Source of the DNA: Kondoa subrosea
Lineage: Eukaryota
Direction of reading: 5' to 3'
DNA: 64,000 nucleotides
NCBI GenBank assembly: GCA_039545335.1
Contig: BCIN01000008.1
Location: forward strand, 124,001 to 188,000
The position numbers were made by a program, and so were the translations under genes. This document shows positions 15,407 to 64,000 of this stretch, in pieces. The notes under the pieces are model-generated. The model saw only the letters and a list, made by a program, of their open reading frames with translations. It was not told the DNA's origin and made no database searches. Position 1 is the first letter of the stretch. Each line of letters opens with the position of its first letter.

Positions 15407-17700
15407 ATGGTTGACGACGATAACTACGTAAGTCTGTCTTCTATCAATGCTCTCATATCGTCTCTATCACTAAACTGGGCTTGGAATTACCTTTTCTTGA
15501 TCACGTGGAGCTGCTGTGAAAGCTCTGGCAACCTGCAGAGCTCTGCTGGCTGTCTCCTTACATATCTCTGACCGTATAGTCGAACAATTGAAGAAATGAT
15601 GCTCATATAACCATATTTGACAGAGATCTTCCCGTTCAGACCGCAGAAGATCAAGAAGTCGTACCCGTGAGTAACCTGTGACTTCTAAGCAAACTGAAGT
15701 GCTGACATTGTATGGTTCACTCGCAGGTAGCCGCAGTCCTCCTCGCAGACGTCGAGACCGATCTTACTCACCACCAACTCGTCGCCGTTCTCCTTCAGTC
15801 GGAGGTAAAAAGGAAGACTCTTCCGATAACTACAGAGCTAGATCTCGATCACCTAGAAGAGACAGAGATATAGACATGGATTCCTCTTCTCGTCGCTCAG
15901 GACCTGGAAGCAGAGATATTGCTGCCGCTGAAGCTGCCAAAAGATCCATCAGAGAAAACAGGGTCTACGTTGGCAATTTGAGCTTCCAAGTTCGTTGGAA
16001 TGATTTGAAAGATTTCATGAGGGAGGGTGCGCAACAGTTTGACCTTTATTTTGGGAGGCGATTGTGAGAATGTAAAAGGCTGAAGTGTGGTGTTATTGTT
16101 GCTGGCAGCCGGAAACGTCGTCTTTGCGGAAGTCATGACTTTACCAAACGGAATGTCAAAAGGTTGCGGGTGAGTGCATTCCTGTGATGTGGTTTGTCAA
16201 CCTCATCCTCAAGGTTCGTCTCACAGTGTCGTCGAATACTCAACTCGTGAAGAAGCCGAAAAAGCTATCTCAACACTGAACGAACAAACACTTCTTGGTC
16301 GTCAGCTATTCATTCGCGAAGTGGGTGTCCTTTTCTCAGCTTTCTACTCTCAAGTCCTCTGTTCTGCCTTTTGCTGTCCCAAGCGATGCTGTTGATGTAA
16401 GGATTGGATTGTGAGATGCTGCGGTTGACTTGATGAGGATCTTTATCTGGCGTTTTTCTCTCACGCCGATTGTTTTCTTCCCTATTTTCTTTCACATCAG
16501 GCAGAACAGAGGCTTTTTGAGTTTGTGGATATGGGTGCAAGGCGACAGGTGTTGATGCTTGTTGTTGTGTCGGATAGGATCGTGAGGAAGAAGCTCGGTA
16601 CGGTGCTGCGGCAGTTAGCGGTCGACCAGGCGGTGAAGAAACTGGTGGTCGTGGTGGATACCGTGGTCGTGGTGGTCGAGGTGGTGCTTTCGGTGCTTTC
16701 GGAAGCGGCAGACCAGAACCTTCTTTCTCGAGCAAGCAGCTTATTGTCGGTGGTGTGAGTTCTAGCGTCTGTCCCTCATTCGAGTGGTAATCTAATGATG
16801 ACATTCTCAGCTCAACTGGGAAGTTGGTTGGCAAGATTTGAAAGACTTGTTCCGTCAAGCTGGAGATATCATTCGTGCCGATATCCACTACGGTTCCGAT
16901 GGCAACCCAAAAGGAACCGGCATGGTCGTCTTTGCCAACGCTAGCGATGCTCAGCAAGCTATCTGTCAGTCGGATGAATGTTGCTTTCAGACTAAATCTG
17001 ATGTGCAACGGTCCAAATTGACAGCCATGTTCGATGGAGCTGAACTCAACGGTATGAAACTCGAAGTCAAAGAAGAACGCTTCTCTGCACCTCAATCCGG
17101 TCCATTCGGTGGAGGAAGAGGTGGTTACGCTCCTCGAGGTGGATTTGCTCCTCGCGGAAGAGGCGGTTACCAAGGTTCGACTATTGGTCAAACTGCTACA
17201 CCAAGCAATCAGATCTTTGTCAAGAACGTGAGTATGCGGGGTGATGGCGTTCAGCATGTCTGAATACATATTCCGTATTTCACAGTTACCTTGGTCTACC
17301 TCAAACGAAGATTTAGTTGAACTGTTCCAAACTACTGGAACTGTCGAATATGCTGAAGCTCTACAAGAAGGAGGTCGCTCCAAGGGCTGCGGTATTGTTC
17401 AATTTGCCAGCAACGAAGAGGCAGAAACTGCTATTGCCAAATTCCGTAAGTTTGATGGATTTGGATTGAGTGTCTAGCTCATTCCGATTTAAATGATACT
17501 ACAGAGGGCTACTCATACGGTGGACGTCCTCTAGCGCTCGAGGTATGCTCTGATATTGAGCCCAATGTGAATTCAGTTTAATCTGCCTTTTATAGTACAA
17601 CGCTCGCTACAGAGACTTCATCGCTCAGCCAATCGGTGTCGAAGCTCCTCATCACAGCAGCCGAGACCATCAATCAGGTGAAGTTAAAATGGAAAGCTAA
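15407..17700 (+). CDS. SR-like RNA-binding protein with three RRMs (Gbp2/Hrb1 family)
   Basis: RS-rich N-terminus; RRM1 RVYVGNLSFQVRWNDLKDFMRE, RRM2 WQDLKDLFRQAG, RGG linker, RRM3 IFVKNLPWSTSNEDLVELF. Confidence 0.9.
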
Positions 17701-31199: not shown

Positions 31200-33562
31200 A
31201 TGATACCTCTGGCTTTGATACTGTCTGTGCTCTTGATACCCTTTGCTCTGGCGCAAGACTTGCCGTGTAGAAAATGGGGCTTCAATACAGCCTTTGGCAT
31301 CTCGCCTATAAACAGCGGTAGCAATTCGACCCTATGGTTGAGCGGAGGTAGACAGAGGACGAGCGCAGGCCAGACATCTGGGAGTAAGTTAACCATCCAA
31401 AAAAACAGAGGTGTGACAATGAAGCTCAATGTGCATGATAGCGTGGACATCAGATCTGCTGTATCTAGATCTCTCGTCTAGTTGGAACATTGGCTCCCCT
31501 GCTCTGTATAAGGCATCCTCATCTGCACCAGCCTTAGCTCTAGGAGGCCTCTACTCATCCAACAATGGCAGCTACATCTATTCTTTCGGAGGAGCGGCGA
31601 GCGATAGCCCAAGAGCTGAACCGCCGGATCCACAGCTAAATGTGTACAATATCGAAGACAAGTCTTGGTCAACTTCTTCGTCAGACAACCTTATGCGTCC
31701 TGCAGAAGGAGCAGCTTGTGCTATCTCCCGAGACGCATCTGGTCAAGAGCCTCTTGCAATTTTTGGTTTTGGGCATTTAGACTATCTCACGGATCCGACA
31801 TGGTCTATGCAAACCGCTCGAATTCTGCTTAATTCCATGGTTGCCATAGATCTCTCGGATCTTTCCTTCTCCAATATCACCTCGGGACCTGGAAGAAGAG
31901 CTGACAATACCCTTTCGTTCATCCCTTATGCCGGCACAAATAGGCAAGGCATACTAGTTCGTCGCCAGTTTTTTGCCAGCGAATGTATCTTAGTAGTGTA
32001 GGTCTCGGTAGGTGGATATGATGGGTCAAGCTTACTTAGCAACAACAACTTGGATGTCTATGATATAGGGAGTAATTCCTGGTCCAAGTATGTACCTTCC
32101 ACACATACTTGCTAGATTTCGAATGCTGAACCTTGGTTTAGGCAGGCTACAAGCGGTGATTCGCCTAGTGGCCGTATCAATCATTGTGCTGCAGAAGGTA
32201 GAGTCTTCGTCGGCGGGATATGGCAGGTAGGCGAGCTAGTCACAGGTGATCGGGGCTGGTTCATCTGTTATAAAAGCACCAGATTTTCTTCTTTGGCGGT
32301 CAGAATCTAGATCAATCGACTCAATACAATGTGAGCTGACTTCGTGCTCAAATATGAATGATCTCATAGCGCTGATCAGGATGTCTACGTTCTTCTTCTA
32401 CCTGCTTTCGAATGGCATCGCATTTCCACGAGCGGAAATAATGCTTCGCCACGGGCTGGTCATACTTGTGATTTCGTTGGCTCGCAATTGATTATTCTCG
32501 GCGGATATGTACAAGATGTAAACAGCTGCGATCAAGACCCTCTTACTATCCTTGATGTGGAAACTATGCAATGGACAGGCTCGTATGATTCATGTGGGTC
32601 TGCACAGTCCTTGTTGCTCGTCTGAGCTGACGGTTCTGTCTCAAAATATAGCTGCTACTATCTACAAATCGCCGAAAACTCTCTCCTCTTCAATCATTGG
32701 TAATTCAGGTACAACCATTGGCGACGGCAATGCAAACAGCAATTCAGATACTGATACTGTAGAAGGCAGCTCAGGGCGGAATCGCTATGAGCCTGCCGAC
32801 GGATCTTCAGGCAATTCTTCACCTGGTTCAAATGAGACGATCTCTTCAAGCGGTTCAGAAGCTACTCAGAAGCTCAACGGTGGTCATACAAAATCAAAAG
32901 TCAGTACGCGTCAGAACGAATCTAATCCTACGGCAACATCAACTTCCCCTTCTTCCCCCTTTTCTTCCAAACCTTCATTAATCGGTATCATCTTTTCGAT
33001 TCTCGCTCTGATCTTCATCAGTACTGCTGTGATCCTGTTCCTCTTAAGGCGAAGGAGAAGAAGGAAACAGTCTAGATATGGACAACTGAATGATGAAACG
33101 AGCGAAATCGATTCCATCTTTGATGCGTCGGAAGATCAATATTCAGATCCATTCTTACCGCATGGAGACAGACAATCTTCGTTCCCAAGGAGAACAAACG
33201 TCCCTTTGAATCGATTCGCTTTAGACAGTCGAAGTCAATTCTCCATGGACGTGCAAGAGGATTATGAGGATGATGGAGATCAAGATCCATTCGGGGATCA
33301 TAATGTGGTTGTTGTTCCCGCTACTCCTTCAAGTGATAAATACGTCAGCAGTACAGAAGAAGGAAGCAATAGTCGACCTAGTTTGAGGATGAGGAGATCT
33401 CATGAGAGTAGGGATCAAGAAGGGTTGAGCCCGAACAATTCAATCAGCGATAGGAAGACGGTCAGCTCTTTTGGTGGGAAAGTGGAGGATATGTCTTATC
33501 AGGAGGATGCTGCTGGTGGTCGATTAGCAAAACGTGATAGACTGTCGATAGCGAATCCTTAA
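31200..33562 (+). CDS. Kelch-repeat type I membrane protein
   Basis: Signal peptide, Kelch-like GG repeats (LWLSGG, IYSFGG, FLFGG, GHTC...LIILGG), Ser-rich stalk, TM helix followed by RRRRRRK. Confidence 0.8.
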
Positions 33563-37760: not shown

Positions 37761-40700
37761 ATGTCAGAATCTGCAGCAGCATCAGGCCCTGTGCCTTTTA
37801 GGCCTCTTGGGGAATGGTCCATAGAGGCTCTGCAGGAACTTCTGAGCGCAGACTCGATACCTGAAAGTGAGCTGTTTTCCCTCCAACGATCAGCATGTAT
37901 TGAATCTGGCATGCAGATGCGGAGGACTGCGCTGCCTGGCTCACTCAACTGGGCATTAGAGGTACATCAAAATCCTACTTCATATCTTTCGACACTGAAT
38001 ATTCATAGATGCTCCGCCTCGACGATCAGTAGTGCGGGTGAGAGCAGCTGTTAGCACTGCTGTCAGTGCTCCTGTGGCCAATACGTTTGCTTCCGGTCAG
38101 TGCATCATGCTTGAAAGAGCATTGTTGACAATGACACAAACAGATCTGTCTGCCTCAACTGTAGAGAACAAGCGGGAATCAGGCTACTCCTCTTCACAAG
38201 AATCTGATGCATATGATTCTGATGATCTGTGTAAGGGTATGCTAATTTGTTGATGTATAGGCTCTTAAGTGCTGAACAGATGAAATAAACGAATCCGATA
38301 TCTCATCAGAAAGCGATAATGAATCAGCAATGAGCGATGAAGATGGCGAACTGGATCAAGAGCTGAAGGCGCTGGTAGAAGGAGACGATGCTTGGTTCGA
38401 AGACATCGAGAGGTCCAGAAGGAATGCTAAAGCAAAAGGCTGGTCGTCAAGCAAGAAGAAAGAATTGTATACAGAAGAGCAACTGGCCGAAATGACCTCA
38501 CGACTACTCAAGTTCTCTGAATCTTCTATAGCAGCAAGACTTGAACAACAACAGCTACTATCCTCTCACACCATTTCTGGCATACCTTCCCTAGCACCAC
38601 AGATAATCAAGCAAACGCTCTTGGACCTCATCAACATCAGTAGGAGGCAGGATGGTCTGGTTGAATTTGATTCATCTTTACCTCTTCTTGCAAACGATGG
38701 TCTCAACGCAATGCTGCTTCAGATGCGTCTTTCTGGACTCACCTTTCATCCTTCTCAGCTACCAGAAGCCCAAAGATGTCGCTACTTTCGCAGAATGACG
38801 GCGGACAATGTTCTACCTTCACCCAACACATGTCAGTACTACGTTCGTCTCAAGCCATACAATTGCAAAACCGAAGCTTTGAGGGATATCGAAGAGTACG
38901 AACGACAAAACAAACATGACCCAATTCTCGTCTATCTTCTTCGCCAAATGTTGTCTGAAATTCAAGAAGGTGTTCCAATCTGGATTCCGTATTTTGGTCA
39001 GACCATCTGCGAAACTCCTTTTGGAAGGGAGAAAGCAGATAAGAAACACCAAGATCGAGCAAGATTGAGTAATTTCTTGAGTATTGCTGGAAGGGATGAT
39101 GTGGAAGTATGGGAATTTGTTTCGCTGGCAACAAATGTATCAGATGCATCAGAATGGGCCAGTAATCCTTGTCTCGGCAATGTGGAAGAAGGCTTGGTAG
39201 ATCTCACTGGGATTAATTGCTCCTTCATCGCGGCTCGTGGCGGTCATTGTCCGGATCGAGCTGTAACAGGCAAAGTTGAAGAGCTTCGCACAAAGACGTT
39301 GGCTTTCTGCGATGCGCCGCTTGAGTTGGATGATCTAGTACCTGATAAATCAAGTAACCTATATCAACAAGCTTCTCGGACTTTTCCTTCTTCTCTTTCC
39401 GATGCAAATGCAGTTCAAGATCGAGCAGAAATTCTTGGTAAATGTGCCGTATCGAATCGATCGAGTTGGGAAGACAGGCATGGACAAGAAGCGATGCGCA
39501 AAGTTCAAGAGAAATTTCCACAGCACCCTCAAGCTTGGTCTTTTCTTGCTACTACACGCAAATTGGTCAAGTTGGGGAAAGGTGTCATGGATCGAACGAA
39601 GCTGCTAGTCTCGGCAATATCAGAATTGCTACCTGACGGTTCGCTACTATCTCTGCAAGTGATGAAGGACAACACTCGGCAGGATCTTACTGGCAAAGGC
39701 TCTGTCTGGGCAAAAGTGGCTGGGCAAGGGCCTGAATATATGAGGCGCTACTTCCTCAGAGCTCAAGACAAAGCGAAAAACCTTTTTGGATTCGATCTAC
39801 CTTCTATCTCAGCTCATTTTCTTGTGTTTGTCGACTTCTGGGATACAACGCTATGTCATGTCTTGATATTCGTCGCGATCTACCAGCTCCTGCGATATAT
39901 TCATCATGCAAAGCCTCGAATTTTGTTGGTGCAATCATCTAAAGTGAGCAGCACAGTCATTTCGAATTGTCATCTACTCAAATTGAATCTAGGTTTTCAA
40001 CTTGCTCCGATCTGGAATTCTTTACCGGCTTGAATACTACTCCGATCCTGCTCGTCTTGCAAGCTTTTACCTGTTCGATAACGAAAGTCTCAACTTTCTC
40101 ATCATCTTTATCGTGGTCATCATGGTGAATGGCATCCGCATGATATGCATAATATGGGTCGACTGTCCAGTAGAGGATTGGTTGCTTCATATCGGCGAAC
40201 CGATGGTCATTCCCACTGGTCGCGGTACATTCAGTATTATGATCCCGGTCAATGATTCGGGTGCATTAAAACGTTCACCTGAAGCAGCTCAATTGCACGA
40301 CAAGGTCGTCTTAATGGCGCATTTTCGATTTCAGATTGCGTGCAAGATTGCAAGTGTTCTACTATGGGATTTAGGAGACGAAGAGACTGCGATCGAAGTC
40401 AAGAACATCATCATCAAGATTCTACGCGAGATAGATTCGAATGGAGAATTTGCGAAGGCGAAACAACAACTATCCGAACAATATTTTCTCTTTGGTTCGC
40501 TCAGCAATACTTCGCAATATGTAAGAACGAGGGAACAGCAATCAGCCGAGAAAAGGGCTCATAGAGCATCAAAGCGCTCTGCGAAAAGCTCTACTAATCA
40601 TCACAAGTGAGTGTCCAATTCATCTGCGGAACGATTTTTCCAAGCTCATACAGAATCTTAGCCTTACCAAACAGAGCGAAAAGGTACAGGGATCTATTGG

Positions 40701-42021: not shown

Positions 42022-42498
42022 AATACATGGAGATGGCTTTAAATACGAAAGTTGCCCTTTTGCGGTCCGAAGCCCATCTCACAAACGCGTGGAAGGGACA
42101 GGTAGCATCATCATCTTCTCTACAGAACTTCATTCCTTCTTCCGGTCGATCTTTGCACAACAGGGCAACCAATTCAAACAAAGAAACTACATCTTGTCTT
42201 GGTACTGCAGCTCTCCATTACTTGCTCCAGTACTTCGTCTCATCGATCCTTGATGGTAATCCTGTACAGTTCTACCTCTTCTTTATTCTTTAGCTTCTTG
42301 GGGCCTAGTGTTTCTTTGCATGCTATGTGTGATAAACGTTTCGATTCTTCAAAATAGAATGCATAGTAGATAAGAAACCAGTGATGAGACTAGCCATTTG
42401 CTTGACTGAAGGACGTAATACATTCTCATCCAGCAAAGTGACTCTATTGTGTCGCATCTCCAGTACGTGTGCACGCTCTACATAATTTAGAAAAATGC

Positions 42499-42505
42499 TA
42501 TATAA
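42499..42505 (+). promoter_or_regulatory. TATA element upstream of the split tRNA gene
   Basis: TATATAA about 40 nt upstream of the predicted mature tRNA 5' end. Confidence 0.5.
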
Positions 42506-42541
42506 TAGCAACACAGCCGGTCAATATCCAATAAATCTGAA

Positions 42542-42718
42542 GGGGTTTTGGCGGAGCAAGTTCCCTTCCTTAATCATCCTACTCAAAGCTAACTTTCTCT
42601 GCAGGTGGTTATCGCGGCAGGTACATTCGATCTCTACAGTACAAGAACCCATCTCATTCCCCTCAAGCCTAGAAAGCTGTTTCCATTTGGAGCGCATGTT
42701 CGAATCATGCAGACCTCG
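42542..42718 (+). tRNA. tRNA-Ser(AGA) split by two spliceosomal-type introns (exons 42542-42555, 42605-42620, 42668-42718)
   Basis: Joined exons give GGGGTTT TG GCGG AGTGGTTA TCGC G GCAGC CTAGAAA GCTGT TTCCATTTGGAGC GCATG TTCGAAT CATGC AGACCTC G: 81 nt, all four stems pair, long Ser-type variable arm, G73 discriminator. Confidence 0.9.
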
Positions 42719-42729
42719 GGATTACAATC

Positions 42730-42750
42730 TTTTTGTCTCGTTTTTGTTTT
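42730..42750 (+). terminator. RNA polymerase III terminator (oligo-dT tracts)
   Basis: Three T5 runs starting 12 nt after the tRNA 3' end. Confidence 0.7.
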
Positions 42751-42830
42751 TGGCCTTCAATTCAAAAAGGAAAGTTAAACTCGTCTGCGTAGCTAATCTA
42801 ACCTCTTTGCCAAATAGAATCTATAGCTGT

Positions 42831-42880
42831 GATAGATGAGAGAGATAGAGAGCGAGAGAGCGAGAGAGATAAAGCAGAGC
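42831..42880. repeat. GA-rich simple repeat
   Basis: gatagatgagagagatagagagcgagagagcgagagagataaagcagagc. Confidence 0.6.
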
Positions 42881-44994: not shown

Positions 44995-47900
44995 ATGTCC
45001 TCAATTTCGAGCAAACCGATTCGCAAGAAAGCTAGACTGTCTTCTGAAGTACCTGATGAGCGAGAGCAACGCGTTCGTTTCAATCCTTTCGACGATGAGA
45101 AGTCATCCAGTGAAGCTGCAGTGGAGCAAGAATTTCTTGAGCCTGCTCGAGTGGTCTTAGCAATCACCAATTACAAACGATCTACAGCTGCTGCTGCTTA
45201 TGACAGCTCTGTCAACAAGATCTATGTGTTTGAGGACAGCAGGGATGAATCGCTCGACCTTGTTATGACTAGTTAGTCCTTTTGCATTCCCTACACTCCT
45301 AGAGAGCTGATCGATATGTTCAGTCATCGAGCAAGTCACACCCCATGTTCTATTGGTCTCATCAAAGAGCGAGGAAACATTCATAGAGAAAGTCAAATCT
45401 AGTTGTGCGTAATGTCTCTCTCTGTGGTCAGTCACGCTGACGAGAGGGCAGTGCAAACTATCTCTGATGAAGAACATAGAGTGCAAGTCCGTCCGAGCAA
45501 AGAATGGCAAGCTGCTTCTGGTCGAGCTGGATTATGTGATTTACGTATCCTAAGTTTGGAACATGCCATTCACGAGAACAGCGGAGACCAAGAAAGGAAT
45601 TATACTCTGGCCTCGTTCGTAAATCTGGCTGCTAATGTCATGGTGAATTCTGCTGCGCCGTAATCCAAACAACAATTGCTGAATGAATCACAGATGTCGG
45701 CTGTTTCTTGCTTATTGGCTCATCTCGCTCGTAGCTCCATCGGAAGAGAAGACGAGATTGAAGGCTTCCACGAGGTGGATTCGATCGAGATGATCTCACT
45801 GTCCGCTTTGTCAAATTTGACTGAAGTTTGCGTCACTCAAATATGATCACAGGGACAAGATTCTGCAAATCAATATGGATGCCTTGATGTAGGCTGCAAA
45901 GTGTAAAGTATCGCTATAGCTGACTGTCTATCTAGATCGCTACAAGTCTTTAGCTCTTCTATTCAAACCGCTTCCGATCAGAAAAGTCTTTCTCTATTCG
46001 GTCTGTCGAAATTTTCCTTGATACACTCTTCAACTGATGGACTTGTAGCTCTTTTGAACTGTACCTGCACACCGCAAGGCAAATTACTTTTGCGTACCTG
46101 GATGCTGCGGCCAAGTGCTGAGACTGAAGTGATCAATAACAGACTAGATGTGGTCGAGCTATGTTTAAGAGGAGAAAATCGTCAGCTTTATGATTCCCTT
46201 GATTTAAACCTGCCTAATAATACATACAGAGCATCTTATGATCAATATTCGAAGTAGCTTGAAGAAAATCAAGAATGTTACTGCTGCTTTGAAAGCTGTT
46301 AAACTCAATCGAGCAAAATTGGGTGATTGGAATGTCATTCATCAGGTTGGAACAATTGATTTGCAACGATCAATCAACAGCTCAACAGTTGTATTTGACA
46401 GTTCATGACCAATATTCTTGCTGTTAGAGAATCGCTTTCTTCTATGTCGGGCGTCAGGAAAGTGGCTTTCTGCGACAAGGTCAGTCAAAGCGATTCGAGC
46501 ATCCGTCCAGGTCCTCTCAAACTTGAAATAGTTTCTTGAACTTTGCAGTCTTATCGATTATCATTACATGGCAAATTTGATCAACAACACAGTGAGTTAG
46601 ATGAGATATGTCTGTAATCCCGCAATCTTACAACAGCGACAGATTGACTGGAAAGAATCCAAAGTCCAGAACAAGCTCAGTATCCGACCTCAAGTAGATG
46701 AAGAACTCGATCGATTTCGAGAAGAATTCGCTCATCTACCAATCCGATTGGATCATATTGCTTCAGCTATCATCCAATCTTTACCTGAAGAATTCACTTA
46801 CCCGGTCAATGTGGTTTATTTCCCTTCACTTGGTTATTTATGTACTACGTCTGCTTTGGATTTCGAGCCTGCGGAAATGTATCATGATATGGAAGATTGG
46901 CAGCATCAGGTCAGCTCTTCAGGCATCAGCCTAGTCAAAGTTTCAGCTAAGCTTGCGATGCTCAGTTCACTACCGAAAGTTATGCGTACTGGAAGACTGA
47001 CAGGATGAGAGATCTGTAAGATGGTAGTTGTGCCGTGCATGCTGAAAACTAAGGCAGGACTGTGTAAACAGGGATGACAGTTTCGGTGATCTCGCTACTA
47101 TCATCCAAAATTTGGAGTTGGAAATCGGTCAGTACTGCAATTTGCTGCGAATTACTCTTTGTCTAAAGTTAACACAGTCATGCTACTGCGAGAGCAAGTG
47201 TTGGAACACGAGGTCGCGATTATCCTCATGTCAGAGGCAATCGGAGAACTTGATTGGTACGACCTTTTGTTGGTAACGTCGAGATAGCTCTGATCGCAAC
47301 ACAGTCTCCTCTCTTTTGCTACGGTATCGAAAGAACTCAATCTGGTGAGACCAAAAATGACCGAGGAAAACATTTGCAGGTGTGTGACCTCTATTGCTCT
47401 AACATTATTGCCTATGAGTGGTGAACAGAATTGTCGAAGGAAGACATCGTAGGTGCAGGCTATATACATTACATCATGGTTAAGCTTGCATCTAGCGATT
47501 GTGGAACTTCTAGTGGACAGCTTTGTTGGCAATGACTACTCTGGTGTAAGCACGTGATTGACTCCAAAAACTTATTGATGCGATTTTCAGGCTGGCGGTA
47601 ACGGTCTACGTGCAGAAGAAGACGAAGAGCAAGAAGATAGTCTGGACCCGAATTTGAGTATCCTTGTCGTCATGTAAGCCGTCTGTTTGGCCTTCGGCTG
47701 ATATCTGGCTCAGCTTTGTCAGGGGCGCGAAGTAAGTGCTTCTTCGGGCTTCCGTCGACTTGCAATGACAGTTTCCCTAGCGGAAGCGGCAAATCAGTCT
47801 ATCTCAAAAGTTCGTGATCGCCTTCTTCCAGGACCCCGTCTGGGCTTATAATCTATCAGCGGTGGCATTGATTGTCTACATGGCTCATGTTGGATGCTTT

Positions 47901-48915
47901 GTGCCTTGCACCAAGGTGTGACTGTCTCGAGCTGACTGTTCCGAGTCTGAGGTTGTGACAGGCTATGATCGGTATTACAGACAGTATTCAGACGCGAGTG
48001 TCGACTCGAGAATCTGTGACAAGGGTAGGAAAGTTTTATGTCACTGTTTATGCTAAAGCGACGTTCCGCGCAGGCCGCTTCGGCTTTTCTCATTGACCTT
48101 CAACAAAGTGAGTCTTCGCTCTCATTACTATCGCCTCGCTCAAGCCAAATCAGTCTCTTACCTATTACGCAACTCGACGTCCCGTTCGCTGTTGGTAGGT
48201 CTTTTGAATGGACACTCAAACAACTAACGATACGGTTCCAGCTCTGCGACGAATTTGGCAAAGCAAGTATTCTCGCCTGCATAGATGCTCTCGCTCAAAG
48301 TCTACGCAGGGAACAGAAACCTCTGACGGTAGCGCTCTGTTTCTTTCTTTGCTCGAGTATCTGGCCAATAAGGCTGAAGATTGTCCCCGAGCTCTACTGG
48401 CAACACACTTCCAAGACGTTATCGCTAACCGGAAATTATGCCCTGTTCGCTCGTCGCTCGGCCTAGCTCATATGGCTCTGTTGAGCGAGCAGAAGACTAG
48501 TCTGAGTGAGGTCACTTATACTTATCGGTGAGACTGCGGAAGATCGTTGGAAATTACTGATGTGCGCTGATGCTAGTCTGCAACCTGGAATTCTGAACTC
48601 GAGCTGTTAGTCACTTTCGATACATTCCATGCTGGCTCTGACTTTTAATGTTTAGACGCCTTGCACTGCGCTCGCCTACAAGGCGTTGCTGAAGAAGTTC
48701 TCGAACGAGCGGAGGAAGTCTCACAAGTCATGCTTTCTGACGGAGGTTGGACCGATCGCCTTGCTCTCGAAGATATGAATGCAGACGAGATTCTCGATGC
48801 TGAACTCGTAGCAAAGTCTTTTCTTGTTCTAGACCTCGACGAGCCAGGAATCGATGCGAGGGTGCTGTTGAAGGACATTCTGAGCCGTGTACAATCTGAA
48901 GCAGCTTCTACGTGA
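44995..48915 (+). CDS. MSH5: Meiotic MutS homologue 5 (more than 25 introns)
   Basis: [30 protein letters not shown]...[46 protein letters not shown]...DG, ATHF. Confidence 0.9.
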
Positions 48916-56800: not shown

Positions 56801-59800
56801 ATGGAGCAGCTCATCTGGCATGGCGAACTCCAAGGGCAACCGCAAGAGATCCACACCTTGCGTCTGACCGAAGCAATTCGTTTGACGAGATTACATGTTA
56901 TACCCAGTCAAGAGCCCGAGACTATGCTTGATAATTCTCCGTCGCTGCAAGTCTTTGTGCATCAAATGCCTATCCAGAAAGGGATGAGCGCTACCATGAA
57001 ACCATTCAATTTGCATTACAAGCCTACGGATTCTGTTCAAGCGTTTGATTTACCTACTCCGTCAGCTGCATTTGGCAGGCTTGTCATCATCAAAGGATCT
57101 TTTACAAAGCTTTCATTGTCCCTATATGGCGAAACGAAGCCTAAGCCAATACCTAAAATCGAAGTGAAGCTGGAAGATACTCAACCCTCATCCGTGGAAG
57201 ATCCTGTAAATCTACCTGTAAAGAGAAAAGCTAGCATAGAACCTGAAGGAGCGGGAATGAGAAGAAAGCTATCACCTTCTCCGGCGCAAGTAACGATACA
57301 ACTTGCTCGACCAAATTTTGAATACTTGCGTGGACTTGTAGCTGAATCTCAGAAGAGTCAGCTGATTGTACCGAACATGTCTCTTGCGGACTTTACGCCA
57401 AATGTCCTGCAAGAGATTCTACCAGCAGGACAGACTGTAGAAAGTATAATTCTACAAACTCTACAGCCCGTCAAACCTACAGTCAATGGCCACTTGCCTG
57501 CTTCTTCAATGGCGGATATTTCTGCAATGAGTGTCGAGCATATCCAATTCGCCGAGAGAGAAGAGATCTATAGCATCATGAGGACCGTGGAAGCCACTTG
57601 GGCGTATTTGAGCAATCAGGTCCATCTCAACTCACTTTGTCCTGTCCCTGATCTAACATTCTTTGTCAGCTATGGGATCGCAATTCGCTTCAAATCTTCT
57701 TGGCTTGTTGTCGGAACCTAGCTCAAAATGGCCATGCGGCTGATCATCTTTCAGTAAGCTACAGTACCTCTTGAGAGTTGTGATTTCTCAACGGAACTTT
57801 CAGGCTATTCTCATCGTCATGTCCGAAAGACTAGAGGACACCTCAATTCCTACCTCAATTCGCCGATCTCTTTTTGAGACTATTGTCACTTGCGGTCTAT
57901 CACCAACCCTCTCAGCTGAAACACAACTTTTAGCTCTGCTTACACAGCTCTCCAATTATCCACCGACCCATCTTCGACTTCCTTCATCTTCAGATATACT
58001 ATCGCACATCAAAGAGCGAGTAGGGTTATGCTCTATGTTGGAAGGGATCAAGTCATCTCTCACAGAATTAGAGTCAACAGTCTCGGACGAAGACATTGCC
58101 AATTTGTGCAATGAATCACTGTCACTTCTTCCACCAGTACTCGAATACGCTCGAAACCTATCAAGTTCTTCATATCAAGATATTTATGGATATTGGGAAA
58201 CATTGAGAGCTTTCGAATATGTTCATATTGTTCAGAAGATTGGTGAATTCAGTGAAGAGCAAAACAAATTTACCAAACATTTGCTCGAATTGGCTGTGGT
58301 CGCTTTCAAACAGAAGGAAGGTATCAAATGGATTGTCGAACTATGCTCAATCATCAATGTGGAAATTCAGCTAGATGAGAAAAGCGAGGAGAGGCTTTAT
58401 GAATTCTTGCTGTATCTTGATTTGGGTTTGGATGTAGATACAGAACTGGCTCATCTGGGAAAAATGTTGGTGCATGCTGTCAAAGCTGTTGGAATAGTCA
58501 TGCTGTATGAAGAAAATGAGAAGTGCAATGAATGGCTTCGTTCACTATCTCCTGCTTTACGAATGGTCAGTTTTTATCCGCAGGCAGCAACGTATGTCTT
58601 ACATCAGAGTAGATCCGTGAGAAACTCGTTCTATTACCGCACTTCATAGCAGAGCCGTCACATACACCATCAAAGCCCGACTTTCGAACTGTACCATTCT
58701 CGCCTGCGTCTGCGCTTGATCTCTGTATTCTTACTTCTCAGACACTTCTCCTGGAACAGCAGACAAATTTAAACCACGATCTCGAAGAATGTCTTTCTTC
58801 TTTGCAAGCAGCGCTTCCAAATCGGAGCTCAGAAGTGTATGCCAACTGGGATAAACTCGATTCAACACAAGGTCCATTACCTTGGCGATTGCTGCAGCTA
58901 CTTCAAGAAGCCGTACTGTTGCTAGATGAACATTTTCAAATACGTTCATATACTCGAACGGCAATTTTACCCTGGGCGACTTCGACAGCGCATCCGCAAG
59001 CTCAGCAAATACGGACTTTGCTCAAAATCTGTACACGCTTGTTGCATATCCTGGGTCACATCTTGAAGGATCTATTTCAACCTTGCCATCACGAAGTCAA
59101 CGCAAAGAAGCTTGCTCTGGCTCAAACATCACTGCTTTTATCTCCTGCATTCTCAATCTATCGGTTGTCTCACGTTCTTTCAAGCACCTCCTCTGATTTA
59201 TCGATTCTGGCCAGTATAGCACAGCGACAAAGCTTCCTTCTCATCTCTCAATTCCCAACGTCCTTCCAATCAACTATACTAGGCAAAGTAATAAGTCAAA
59301 TTATCTTTACTCAATCATTATTCCTGGATGCCGCTGCAATCTGTAAGCTACTTGTCGATCTTCTCAAAGGCAAAGAAGGCAATATATGGCGAAGAGTCTT
59401 CTTAGTTGCCTCAACTGAAATGACCAAATTCTTGGCTATTCAGTGCGATCTGGAAGAGCCTTCTGTCTTAGCTTTCGTACAACTTCTGCTCAAACTCGAT
59501 GAGCACAATCCCATTGGTCTTCTACATTCACTAATCACCGAGATTCGCAAACATGTAATTGACAATGATCGAATAGCAGGAGAAGATTCGCCATTAGCTG
59601 GATGGAGAGCCTACAACTGCTTGCTGTTACTCACGATCATTGCAAAACATCCCTTTGGCAAAACGAAAGTTGACGAGCTGTTCAGTACAGCGCTATGGCA
59701 AGAATTGGTTGGAAGAGACGCTCCACAAGCTATACAAACAATTCTTTCAGATCTTATGCCAAAAGATGTCCAAGCTGATCTCAAACCTCAAGTAGATGCC

Positions 59801-62563: not shown

Positions 62564-64000
62564 TCAAACCCAATCATCTCTCGCTCCAGCCGGTGTTGGC
62601 AAAGCAGGCGAAACCACTGCTGCAGACCGATTGACTTGCTTAGGCCTAGCTCTGAACATCTTCTTCTGATTAGGCGGTCGTGCAGTACCTATTTGACTTT
62701 CAGAGTCCAGAGGAGTATAGCAAGAAGTTATTGCAGAAGGAGAAGAATTGACCATAGTATTGAGTTCAGACAATCGAGTTAGACATTCTTGTTCCAACAA
62801 TTTCAAGCCCAACCAAGCAGCTTCTTCTCTTAAGTCTTGCAATTGAGAAACGATTGGATGTAAGAGAAGAGCAGATAAGTTTGTGGGTAGATCAGAGAGT
62901 TCAAGTTGAACTGAATAGCTTGAGTTGCTACTATCTCTATTTGCATTGCAGTTGCTTGCGAAAGAGAGAGTAGAGGAAACCAACAGGGATCGAGGGAGAG
63001 AACCGGTACGCAAGTAGTGGATGATTGCCTCATATCGGGAAGGGTCGCGCTCAAGAAAGATCTCAACGTATTCATCTAGTTTCTGCGTCGATGAAGAAGA
63101 ATGAGCCATCATCCGAGCTGGAGTTTCGACCAAGTAAGGAGCAGCAATGAGTTGAGGAACTTCTTCGTGAGAGCTGGTCGAAGAAGAGCATGAGAGAGAA
63201 GGAGCCGTTTCTGGTCCCACAGAGGGAAGAGCTCGAGTAGTGATGATACAGCTGAGATCCTTCTTCTGCGGCAGGGAAGCGAGTTGAAAGTCGGATGTCC
63301 AGTCTTCTACACCAGCTTCAGTAGGCAGTTCATCAAAGCCGAGTATGGTAGCTCGAGCACTCTTTGGAGCAATATCCATCGAATCGACTAGTTGAGGCTG
63401 TTGAGCGACTTTGATGCAGAGTGACGGTGACGACATTGCAGTTGAGGGGAAAAGACCAGTCATTTCACCAAAGACCATTTCGTCGTCTATTGAGGTTCGT
63501 CTGGAAGTAGATGCCGTAGCCTGAGCTAAAATCTTTTCTCGAGGTGAATGTTGACCAGGTAAGATGAGAGACGAGTCCAATGTGTCAGACCATTCGTTTG
63601 ACTGTAAACATAGAACCTCTTGAGCTCGATTAAAGAGCGCGAGATGTCCAGCACTAACGATCATATCTGCCTCCGATTGATTCATTCCAAAGTCCGCTCC
63701 CATTTCAGCCTCAGCAATAACCTCCTTCACAAACTGTCCCAGCTTCGACTTCTGGCTCAATAGAGTCTTGACCGGTAGACAAAACCGTTGAAGTCCACCA
63801 CCGCCAACATTGAGAGTGATCAACTTTGATTCTTCCTCGCAATCTTTAGGAAAAGGTAGAGCAGGTCTTAGCAATAAAGCTCTGAATGGAGAGGCTGATG
63901 CGGAAGAGGGTGAAGAAGTAGAGACTTGTTTGCTGACTTTCTGTTTGACTAGAATAGGCGCAGGTTGATTAGCTTTAGGTCTCCTGGAGTTGAGAGGAAA
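62564..64000 (-). CDS. BTB/POZ (KCTD-type) domain protein, 5' end outside the window
   Basis: ITLNVGG...F...TL, then IFLERDPSRYEAIIHYLRTG and LREEAAWLGL. Confidence 0.75.
   Translation of the reverse strand, partial: FPLNSRRPKANQPAPILVKQKVSKQVSTSSPSSASASPFRALLLRPALPFPKDCEEESKLITLNVGGGGLQRFCLPVKTLLSQKSKLGQFVKEVIAEAEMGADFGMNQSEADMIVSAGHLALFNRAQEVLCLQSNEWSDTLDSSLILPGQHSPREKILAQATASTSRRTSIDDEMVFGEMTGLFPSTAMSSPSLCIKVAQQPQLVDSMDIAPKSARATILGFDELPTEAGVEDWTSDFQLASLPQKKDLSCIITTRALPSVGPETAPSLSCSSSTSSHEEVPQLIAAPYLVETPARMMAHSSSSTQKLDEYVEIFLERDPSRYEAIIHYLRTGSLPRSLLVSSTLSFASNCNANRDSSNSSYSVQLELSDLPTNLSALLLHPIVSQLQDLREEAAWLGLKLLEQECLTRLSELNTMVNSSPSAITSCYTPLDSESQIGTARPPNQKKMFRARPKQVNRSAAVVSPALPTPAGARDDWV

Follow-up and report, generated by a model that had tools for sequence, protein, structure and literature searches.

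A tRNA-Ser(AGA) gene divided by two short, apparently mRNA-type introns in Kondoa subrosea

The 64,000-nucleotide (nt) stretch of Kondoa subrosea contig BCIN01000008.1 analyzed here (positions 124,001 to 188,000 of the forward strand; hereafter the window, numbered from its first letter) carries, on the + strand at 42542-42718, a split gene for a serine transfer RNA (tRNA) with anticodon AGA. The split gene is real: three exons are parted by two short inserts, the first between tRNA positions 14 and 15 and the second between positions 30 and 31. Re-reading of the sequence showed that the exon and intron coordinates given by an earlier sequence-only reading of this DNA (the first-pass annotation) are exact, and numbering of the spliced product confirmed both insertion sites. 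The gene is laid out as follows:

42542-42555, + strand: exon 1, 14 nt; tRNA positions 1-14, comprising the acceptor 5' strand, T8, the D-stem 5' strand and A14
42556-42604, + strand: intron 1, 49 nt; between tRNA positions 14/15; GCAAGT...GCTAAC...CAG
42605-42620, + strand: exon 2, 16 nt; positions 15-30, comprising D-loop G15, G18, G19 and A21, the D-stem 3' strand, G26 and the anticodon-stem 5' strand (27-30)
42621-42667, + strand: intron 2, 47 nt; between tRNA positions 30/31; GTACAT...CTCAT...AAG
42668-42718, + strand: exon 3, 51 nt; positions 31-73, comprising anticodon AGA (42671-42673), a 13-nt variable region, the acceptor 3' strand and G73
42694-42710, + strand: T arm, within exon 3

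Concatenation of the exons by script yields an 81-nt product that ARAGORN calls tRNA-Ser(aga) and that is a canonical class II cytoplasmic-type tRNA-Ser(AGA). It possesses an acceptor stem of 7 base pairs (bp), two of them G.T, a 4-bp D stem, a 5-bp anticodon stem with a 7-nt loop, and a 5-bp T stem (GCATG/CATGC) closed by the 7-nt loop TTCGAAT. The 13-nt variable region forms a 4-bp stem, as expected for serine, and the discriminator is G73, at 42718. The 7-bp acceptor stem, the AGA anticodon at 42671-42673, the long variable arm, the TTCGAAT loop and G73 were all named in the first-pass annotation and are all present; its description of the molecule as fully paired is correct if G.T is allowed, with 30/30 standard pairs comprising 25/25 in stems (five G.T) and 5/5 tertiary. 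Position-by-position numbering of the spliced product reveals a fit at 20/20 invariant or semi-invariant positions, scored against a checklist taken from general knowledge (T8, A14, R15, G18, G19, A21, R26, Y32, T33, R37, Y48, G53, T54, T55, C56, R57, A58, Y60, C61 and G73); the pairs T8-A14, G53-C61 and T54-A58 on that list fit as well. The fold is held together across the inserts: 15 stem pairs bridge exons, with seven in the acceptor stem (exons 1 and 3), four in the D stem (exons 1 and 2) and four in the anticodon stem (exons 2 and 3), along with the tertiary pairs G15-C48, G19-C56 and G18-T55.

The gene escapes detection in its unspliced state, as had been anticipated for standard finders. 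ARAGORN reports zero tRNAs across the DNA of the 64-kilobase (kb) window and no serine tRNA in the unspliced or either half-spliced form of the locus. A search of the unspliced DNA against Rfam gives no match at gathering thresholds, and the segment 42440-42820 gives none even at E <= 10.

A canonical T arm occurs once on the two strands of the window, at the tRNA locus, compared with 0.12 expected from shuffled sequence. Within the 526 nt from 42142 to 42667, exon 1 is the sole site to combine full pairing to the 3' acceptor strand with a following T8. When the 126 nt from the start of exon 1 to the end of intron 2 were shuffled 200,000 times, an acceptor site appeared in 877 shuffles and the combined architecture of exons 1 and 2 in none.

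How firmly the boundaries are set was assessed by moving them. At default settings ARAGORN is permissive: of 6561 variants with boundaries moved by up to ±4 nt, it accepts 1701 as Ser(aga), and its acceptance alone is therefore weak evidence. As the ARAGORN threshold rises, the number of surviving variants falls to 886, 212, 69 and then, at 117%, to 60 of 6561, with none left at 118%; the proposed 81-nt product is one of these survivors at 117%. Across them, intron 2 is confined to three registers with an identical product (AG..CA, GG..AA and GT..AG), and intron 1 takes 20 boundary choices, one being GY..AG. A strict cloverleaf test over ±8 nt (83,521 combinations) returned 69 passes, comprising the same three registers of intron 2 (of 289 tested) and, for intron 1, 23 options that include a single GC..AG. 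The boundaries of intron 1 are thus loosely set by structure, because the D-loop tolerates length changes, and those of intron 2 are set by the anticodon stem.

The splice signals within the two introns lie at the following positions:

42556-42561, + strand: intron 1 donor, GCAAGT
42588-42593, + strand: intron 1 putative branch site, GCTAAC, its branch A (42592) lying 12 nt before the intron's 3' end
42602-42604, + strand: intron 1 acceptor, CAG, after a pyrimidine stretch
42653-42657, + strand: intron 2 candidate branch site, CTCAT, its branch A (42656) lying 11 nt before the intron's 3' end

The lone GY..AG option among the 20 to 23 boundary choices of intron 1 carries the full GCAAGT/CTAAC/CAG signal. 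The corresponding pattern, G[TC]AAGT..CTAAC..YAG within 40-70 nt, matches once on both strands of the window (128 kb), at 42556; shuffles predict 0.6 matches per window, a per-position chance of 4.7e-6. The complete spliceosomal signal that the first-pass annotation had described for intron 1 is thus present, at the tRNA site and nowhere else in the window, and it argues strongly that intron 1 is an mRNA-type (messenger RNA-type; U2-type GC-AG) intron by sequence. For intron 2, GT..AG is one of three admissible registers, and its occurrence at boundaries fixed by structure has a chance of ~3 in 256 by our own arithmetic. We assign intron 2 with moderate confidence to the mRNA type (U2-type GT-AG), again as judged from its letters.

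Two further observations concern intron 1. When the unspliced precursor is folded at minimum energy, positions 10-14 of the tRNA and the first intron base pair with CTCTGC immediately ahead of the acceptor AG (42551-42602), forming a 6-bp helix, read from the dot-bracket string, that sets the intron 1 splice sites <=2 nt apart; this helix may simply mimic the D stem. The sole perfect G[TC]AAGT..CTAAC..YAG intron of the window sits inside a tRNA gene, and one could speculate that a transcript made without coupling to RNA polymerase II (Pol II) needs stronger splice signals.

A yardstick for both introns was sought in the mRNA introns of the window. The textbook fungal pattern GTRNGT..CTRAY..YAG is modestly enriched, with 29 occurrences on both strands vs 16.7 ± 4.2 in shuffles, and strict textbook consensus is found at the junctions of long open reading frames (ORFs) in two introns only; homology-anchored gaps in a MutS-family gene were therefore used as reference. 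This gene (45091-48897, + strand) is MSH4/MSH5-like, with homologues that carry domains III and V; domain I was not detected. Some ten introns of 46-58 nt divide it. Its exons were placed at ~45.1-48.9 kb by a phmmer search with one exon, which led to distant homologues, and then by tblastn. The best full-length homologue of the MutS-family exon in a library of 1.8 billion proteins is only 37% identical, so the lineage seems poorly sampled. Together, seven introns of this gene and three at long-ORF junctions form the reference set:

45272-45323 (52 nt) and 45405-45451 (47 nt): MutS-family gene, by frame logic in homology gaps
46181-46229 (49 nt) and 46910-46965 (56 nt): MutS-family gene, by frame logic in homology gaps
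47810-47859 (50 nt): MutS-family gene, the only frame-compatible candidate
47916-47961 (46 nt) and 48184-48241 (58 nt): MutS-family gene, by frame logic in homology gaps
40607-40661 (55 nt), 16755-16810 (56 nt) and 32594-32651 (58 nt): long-ORF junctions

All but 47810-47859 were picked among frame-compatible candidates partly by recognizable signals, and the set leans to consensus because those signals guided the choice. The ten introns measure 46-58 nt, with a GT donor and G at +5 in 10/10, and with acceptors CAG in 8/10 and TAG in 2/10. Their branch motifs vary from CTAAC to CTTAT and CTCAT, and the branch A lies about 11-15 nt from the 3' splice site in those counted by hand.

At 49 and 47 nt, the tRNA introns fall inside the 46-58 nt band, and their branch distances of 12 and 11 nt also match. 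The claim that their signals match those of the mRNA introns of the window thus held for both lengths and branch distances but not for the GC donor of intron 1 or for the A at +5 and the AAG acceptor of intron 2, whose CTCAT branch site has a counterpart in one of the ten reference introns (40607-40661). The tRNA gene belongs to a eukaryote with short fungal-style introns.

Other intron classes were considered and rejected. Introns of the tRNA-endonuclease type form a bulge-helix-bulge (BHB) motif, for which the geometry of the archaeal and yeast literature was used, in which a 4-bp helix lies between two 3-nt bulges that hold the cleavage sites. No such motif forms in any of the five product-preserving registers, where the central helix attains 1 to 3 of its 4 pairs, and the insertion sites 14/15 and 30/31 are not the canonical eukaryotic 37/38. 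The eukaryotic tRNA endonuclease is not known to cut at 14/15 or 30/31. Both introns are not of the endonuclease type, in agreement with the first-pass annotation. Self-splicing group I or II introns were rejected on size, the inserts being 47 and 49 nt vs ~100 nt or more for the catalytic structure, and on the absence of an Rfam match at E <= 10. An introner-type origin was rejected since no similar copy of either intron occurs in the window, where the best match is 14 nt (E >= 0.46).

The flanking and internal signals of the gene point to RNA polymerase III (Pol III), without proving its involvement:

42499-42505, + strand: TATATAA box, 43 nt upstream of the mature 5' end
42549-42559, + strand: A-box region, matching 10/11 positions of TRGYNNARNNG in DNA and 11/11 once spliced
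42697-42707, + strand: B-box region, matching 9/11 positions of RGTTCRANTCC, the mismatches being paired positions 52 and 62
42730-42734, 42741-42745 and 42747-42751, + strand: three T5 runs in a Pol III terminator-like cluster, at +12, +23 and +29 from the tRNA 3' end

Box matches were read by eye against consensus sequences from PMC7954030. The A box keeps 10/11 positions in unspliced DNA because intron 1 starts with G. TATAWAW occurs eight times on the + strand in 64 kb, with the TATATAA box alone falling within 42401-42541; in some fungi and plants, tRNA genes make use of a TATA element upstream (PMC3978253). Three or more runs of at least five T within 40 nt are found at a fraction of 0.00018 of window positions, compared with 0.011 for one or more within 20 nt. 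Neither intron contains a T4 run, which is uninformative since TTTT is absent from 75% of 96-nt stretches anyway.

Taken with the intron signals, these features lead us to lean, with slightly better than even confidence, towards a nuclear locus at which the spliceosome matures a functional tRNA-Ser(AGA) from a transcript with two mRNA-type introns. We infer the transcription of the gene, the polymerase, the actual splicing and the use of the tRNA in translation. In the proposed pathway, Pol III would start downstream of TATATAA, use the largely kept A box and the B box, and end at the T5 cluster, giving a precursor of roughly 200 nt from which the spliceosome would take out both introns. RNase P, RNase Z and CCA addition would act after splicing, because the cloverleaf forms only once the introns are out.

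Several features weigh against spliceosomal maturation of this tRNA. The donor of intron 1 is the rare GC, seen in 0/10 reference introns; the intron 2 donor GTACAT has A at +5, where all ten reference introns have G, its AAG acceptor occurs in none of them, and its branch site CTCAT is non-consensus. The reference set itself is small (n=10) and biased to consensus. On the transcriptional side, intron 1 interrupts the A box, the spacing between A and B boxes is ~148 nt vs the usual few tens, and exon 1 holds TTTT (tRNA positions 5-8), which in some organisms would act as a weak stop for Pol III. The mature tRNA would contain five G.T pairs. Intact Ser(AGA) copies elsewhere in the genome, if any, could make the split copy dispensable, the scan having covered 64 kb, and a eukaryotic tRNA gene with an insertion in its D or T arm is usually taken for a pseudogene (PMC4090602).

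Some of these points would also suit a disabled or redundant tRNA-Ser copy, in which two intron-derived inserts sit in a Pol III transcript that is not productively spliced and gives no functional tRNA. We consider this unlikely. One way for the inserts to arise would be reverse splicing into a transcript of the tRNA, then reverse transcription and recombination, and reverse splicing is the proposed origin of the introns in small nuclear RNA (snRNA) genes (PMC5855946); the weak signals of intron 2, the interrupted A box and the customary reading of D- and T-arm insertions as pseudogene marks (PMC4090602) are in keeping with it. Decay, however, is not seen: all 20 invariants and all 30 pairs are kept over three exons, and the terminator cluster and TATA box are intact. 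The introns resemble no other window sequence, and two independent insertions, both splice-competent in orientation and with working branch distances, are easier to account for if splicing is selected.

A second alternative keeps the spliceosome and replaces the polymerase: the precursor would be made by Pol II, as an independent non-coding transcript or by read-through from the upstream gene, and the tRNA would be freed by RNase P and RNase Z. The spliceosome is normally recruited in a manner coupled to Pol II, this polymerase could equally use a TATA box at -43, the locus lies within a 1.2-kb gap between two + strand genes, and Pol II transcribes tRNA-Sec in Trypanosoma brucei (PMC2943599). 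The three T5 runs from +12, rare in the window (P = 0.00018), are nevertheless a classical Pol III stop, the B box and 10/11 A-box positions are kept in the DNA, and splicing of Pol III (U6) and RNA polymerase I (Pol I; ribosomal RNA, rRNA) transcripts is documented (PMC5855946, PMC8527467). Pol II origin is, in our judgment, decidedly improbable.

Removal of the inserts by a protein-based or other non-spliceosomal route that needs no BHB, as for the ectopic introns of the Guillardia theta nucleomorph, has a very small probability. Ectopic tRNA introns that lack a defined BHB, with an unknown mode of excision, are on record (PMC3978253, PMC4090602), but those of nucleomorphs measure 3-24 nt (PMC4090602) against the 47 and 49 nt found here. 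Such a route would leave unexplained the GY..AG ends, the perfect GCAAGT/CTAAC/CAG set and lengths within the mRNA band, and not even a near-BHB motif forms. Chance resemblance, with no tRNA gene and a fit produced by free choice of deletions, could appeal to the boundary variants that ARAGORN tolerates but is effectively refuted by the T-arm count, the unique upstream acceptor partner, the shuffles, the fit at every invariant and tertiary position and the Pol III-like flanks, and its probability is close to nil.

In an engineered precedent, Kohrer, Vogel and Domdey in 1990 reportedly had a yeast tRNA gene with the actin intron spliced by the pre-mRNA pathway; that gene was an artificial construct whose single intron occupied the usual site of tRNA introns, whereas the gene described here is natural and has two introns at 14/15 and 30/31. 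No natural tRNA gene with spliceosomal introns was found in the full-text literature searched, with subscription journals mostly outside its coverage. In their available portions, tRNA reviews bring up the spliceosome only as a contrast or incidentally (PMC10275265, PMC7954030), and surveys of tRNA gene types are without the word (PMC4090602, PMC4033280). According to the paper on tRNAscan-SE 2.0, tRNA genes of eukaryotes 'are limited to one intron', with others sought only in archaeal mode with BHB models (PMC8450103). Scans of metagenomes for relatives returned no stretch with the 27-nt exact 3'-exon pattern and none with the degenerate layout pattern and a GT..AG gap.

The closest natural parallel is the U6 gene of Schizosaccharomyces pombe, Rhodotorula and other fungi, which likewise encodes a small structured non-coding RNA made by Pol III and carries short introns with canonical 5' splice, branch and 3' splice sites (PMC5855946), up to four per gene. 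Beyond those sites the introns show no sequence conservation, and the spliceosome is presumed to remove them, although most fungal ones still need experimental validation, and the determinants of their insertion are called unclear in the same source. U6 sits at the spliceosome's catalytic center, which offers a ready origin by reverse splicing, whereas a tRNA has no such contact; the tRNA host also has its own splicing system, an endonuclease and a ligase, which would here be bypassed. The first-pass annotation had listed U6 in Schizosaccharomyces and Rhodotorula as the precedents. The U6 cases are borne out, but the list was incomplete, omitting the spliceosomal introns of U1, U2 and U5 snRNA genes and of ascomycete rRNA genes (PMC5855946, PMC8527467). 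In ascomycetes, especially lichen fungi, rRNA genes resemble the present case in carrying spliceosomal introns outside Pol II genes that are removed by the host (Bhattacharya et al. 2000, cited in PMC5855946 and PMC8527467), and yeast excises a transplanted one of lichen origin from rRNA made by Pol I (PMC8527467). Those introns differ in residing in Pol I transcripts with rRNA as the product.

In number and position, the introns recall the endonuclease-cut ones of Archaea, Cyanidioschyzon merolae and algal nucleomorphs, where tRNA genes may hold several introns at sites other than 37/38, including the D arm and the anticodon stem, and where such genes are likewise overlooked by standard eukaryotic tRNA finders (PMC3728597, PMC3978253, PMC8450103). 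The archaeal and C. merolae introns form a BHB, unlike the introns here, which form none and have GC..AG and GT..AG ends with putative branch sites.

Reviews and gene finders take eukaryotic tRNA introns as single, placed at 37/38 and cut by endonuclease, a view from which the split tRNA-Ser gene would depart. If splicing is confirmed by RNA, spliceosomal maturation would represent a novel route to a tRNA. The spliceosome could then serve products of all three nuclear polymerases. The gene would offer a clean natural substrate for splicing without Pol II coupling, and would bear on how introns colonize non-coding genes that make no contact with the spliceosome's active site. The tRNA gene counts of some eukaryotes would be underestimates. 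It is a tentative and rather doubtful extension that this lineage relies on the spliceosome to mature one or more essential tRNAs, that the split gene works and is perhaps the chief supplier of tRNA-Ser(AGA), and that other tRNA genes are likewise hidden from every standard finder. In that case translation capacity would depend on spliceosome activity, comparable to a proposal made for the spliceosomal introns in the ribosomal DNA of lichen fungi, and tRNA introns of the group I and endonuclease types would be joined by a further class.

Elsewhere in the window, the junction of a long frame of 311 amino acids (aa) and another of 301 aa at 57703-57764 (+ strand) has a single candidate intron ending at the consensus-like ...CTGATCATCTTTCAG, and this candidate carries a GC donor (GCTTGT; 52 nt); the GT alternatives end a few bases later, in AAG or CAG. 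This junction may hold a second GC-AG intron of the window. At 39993-40033 (+ strand), two long frames of 585 and 205 aa share ~38 nt that they read in different registers, and none of the three GY..AG candidates of <=110 nt is frame-compatible; the overlap could represent a longer intron, a frameshift or two genes. A frame on the - strand (62564-64000) runs off the window end and shows a weak BTB/POZ domain match (E = 3.1e-05). The other 11 long frames tested, along with 3 shorter ones, match no Pfam family above the curated cut-off. An imperfect GA/GAGC microsatellite-like run occupies 42838-42875 (+ strand), ~120 nt downstream of the tRNA gene.

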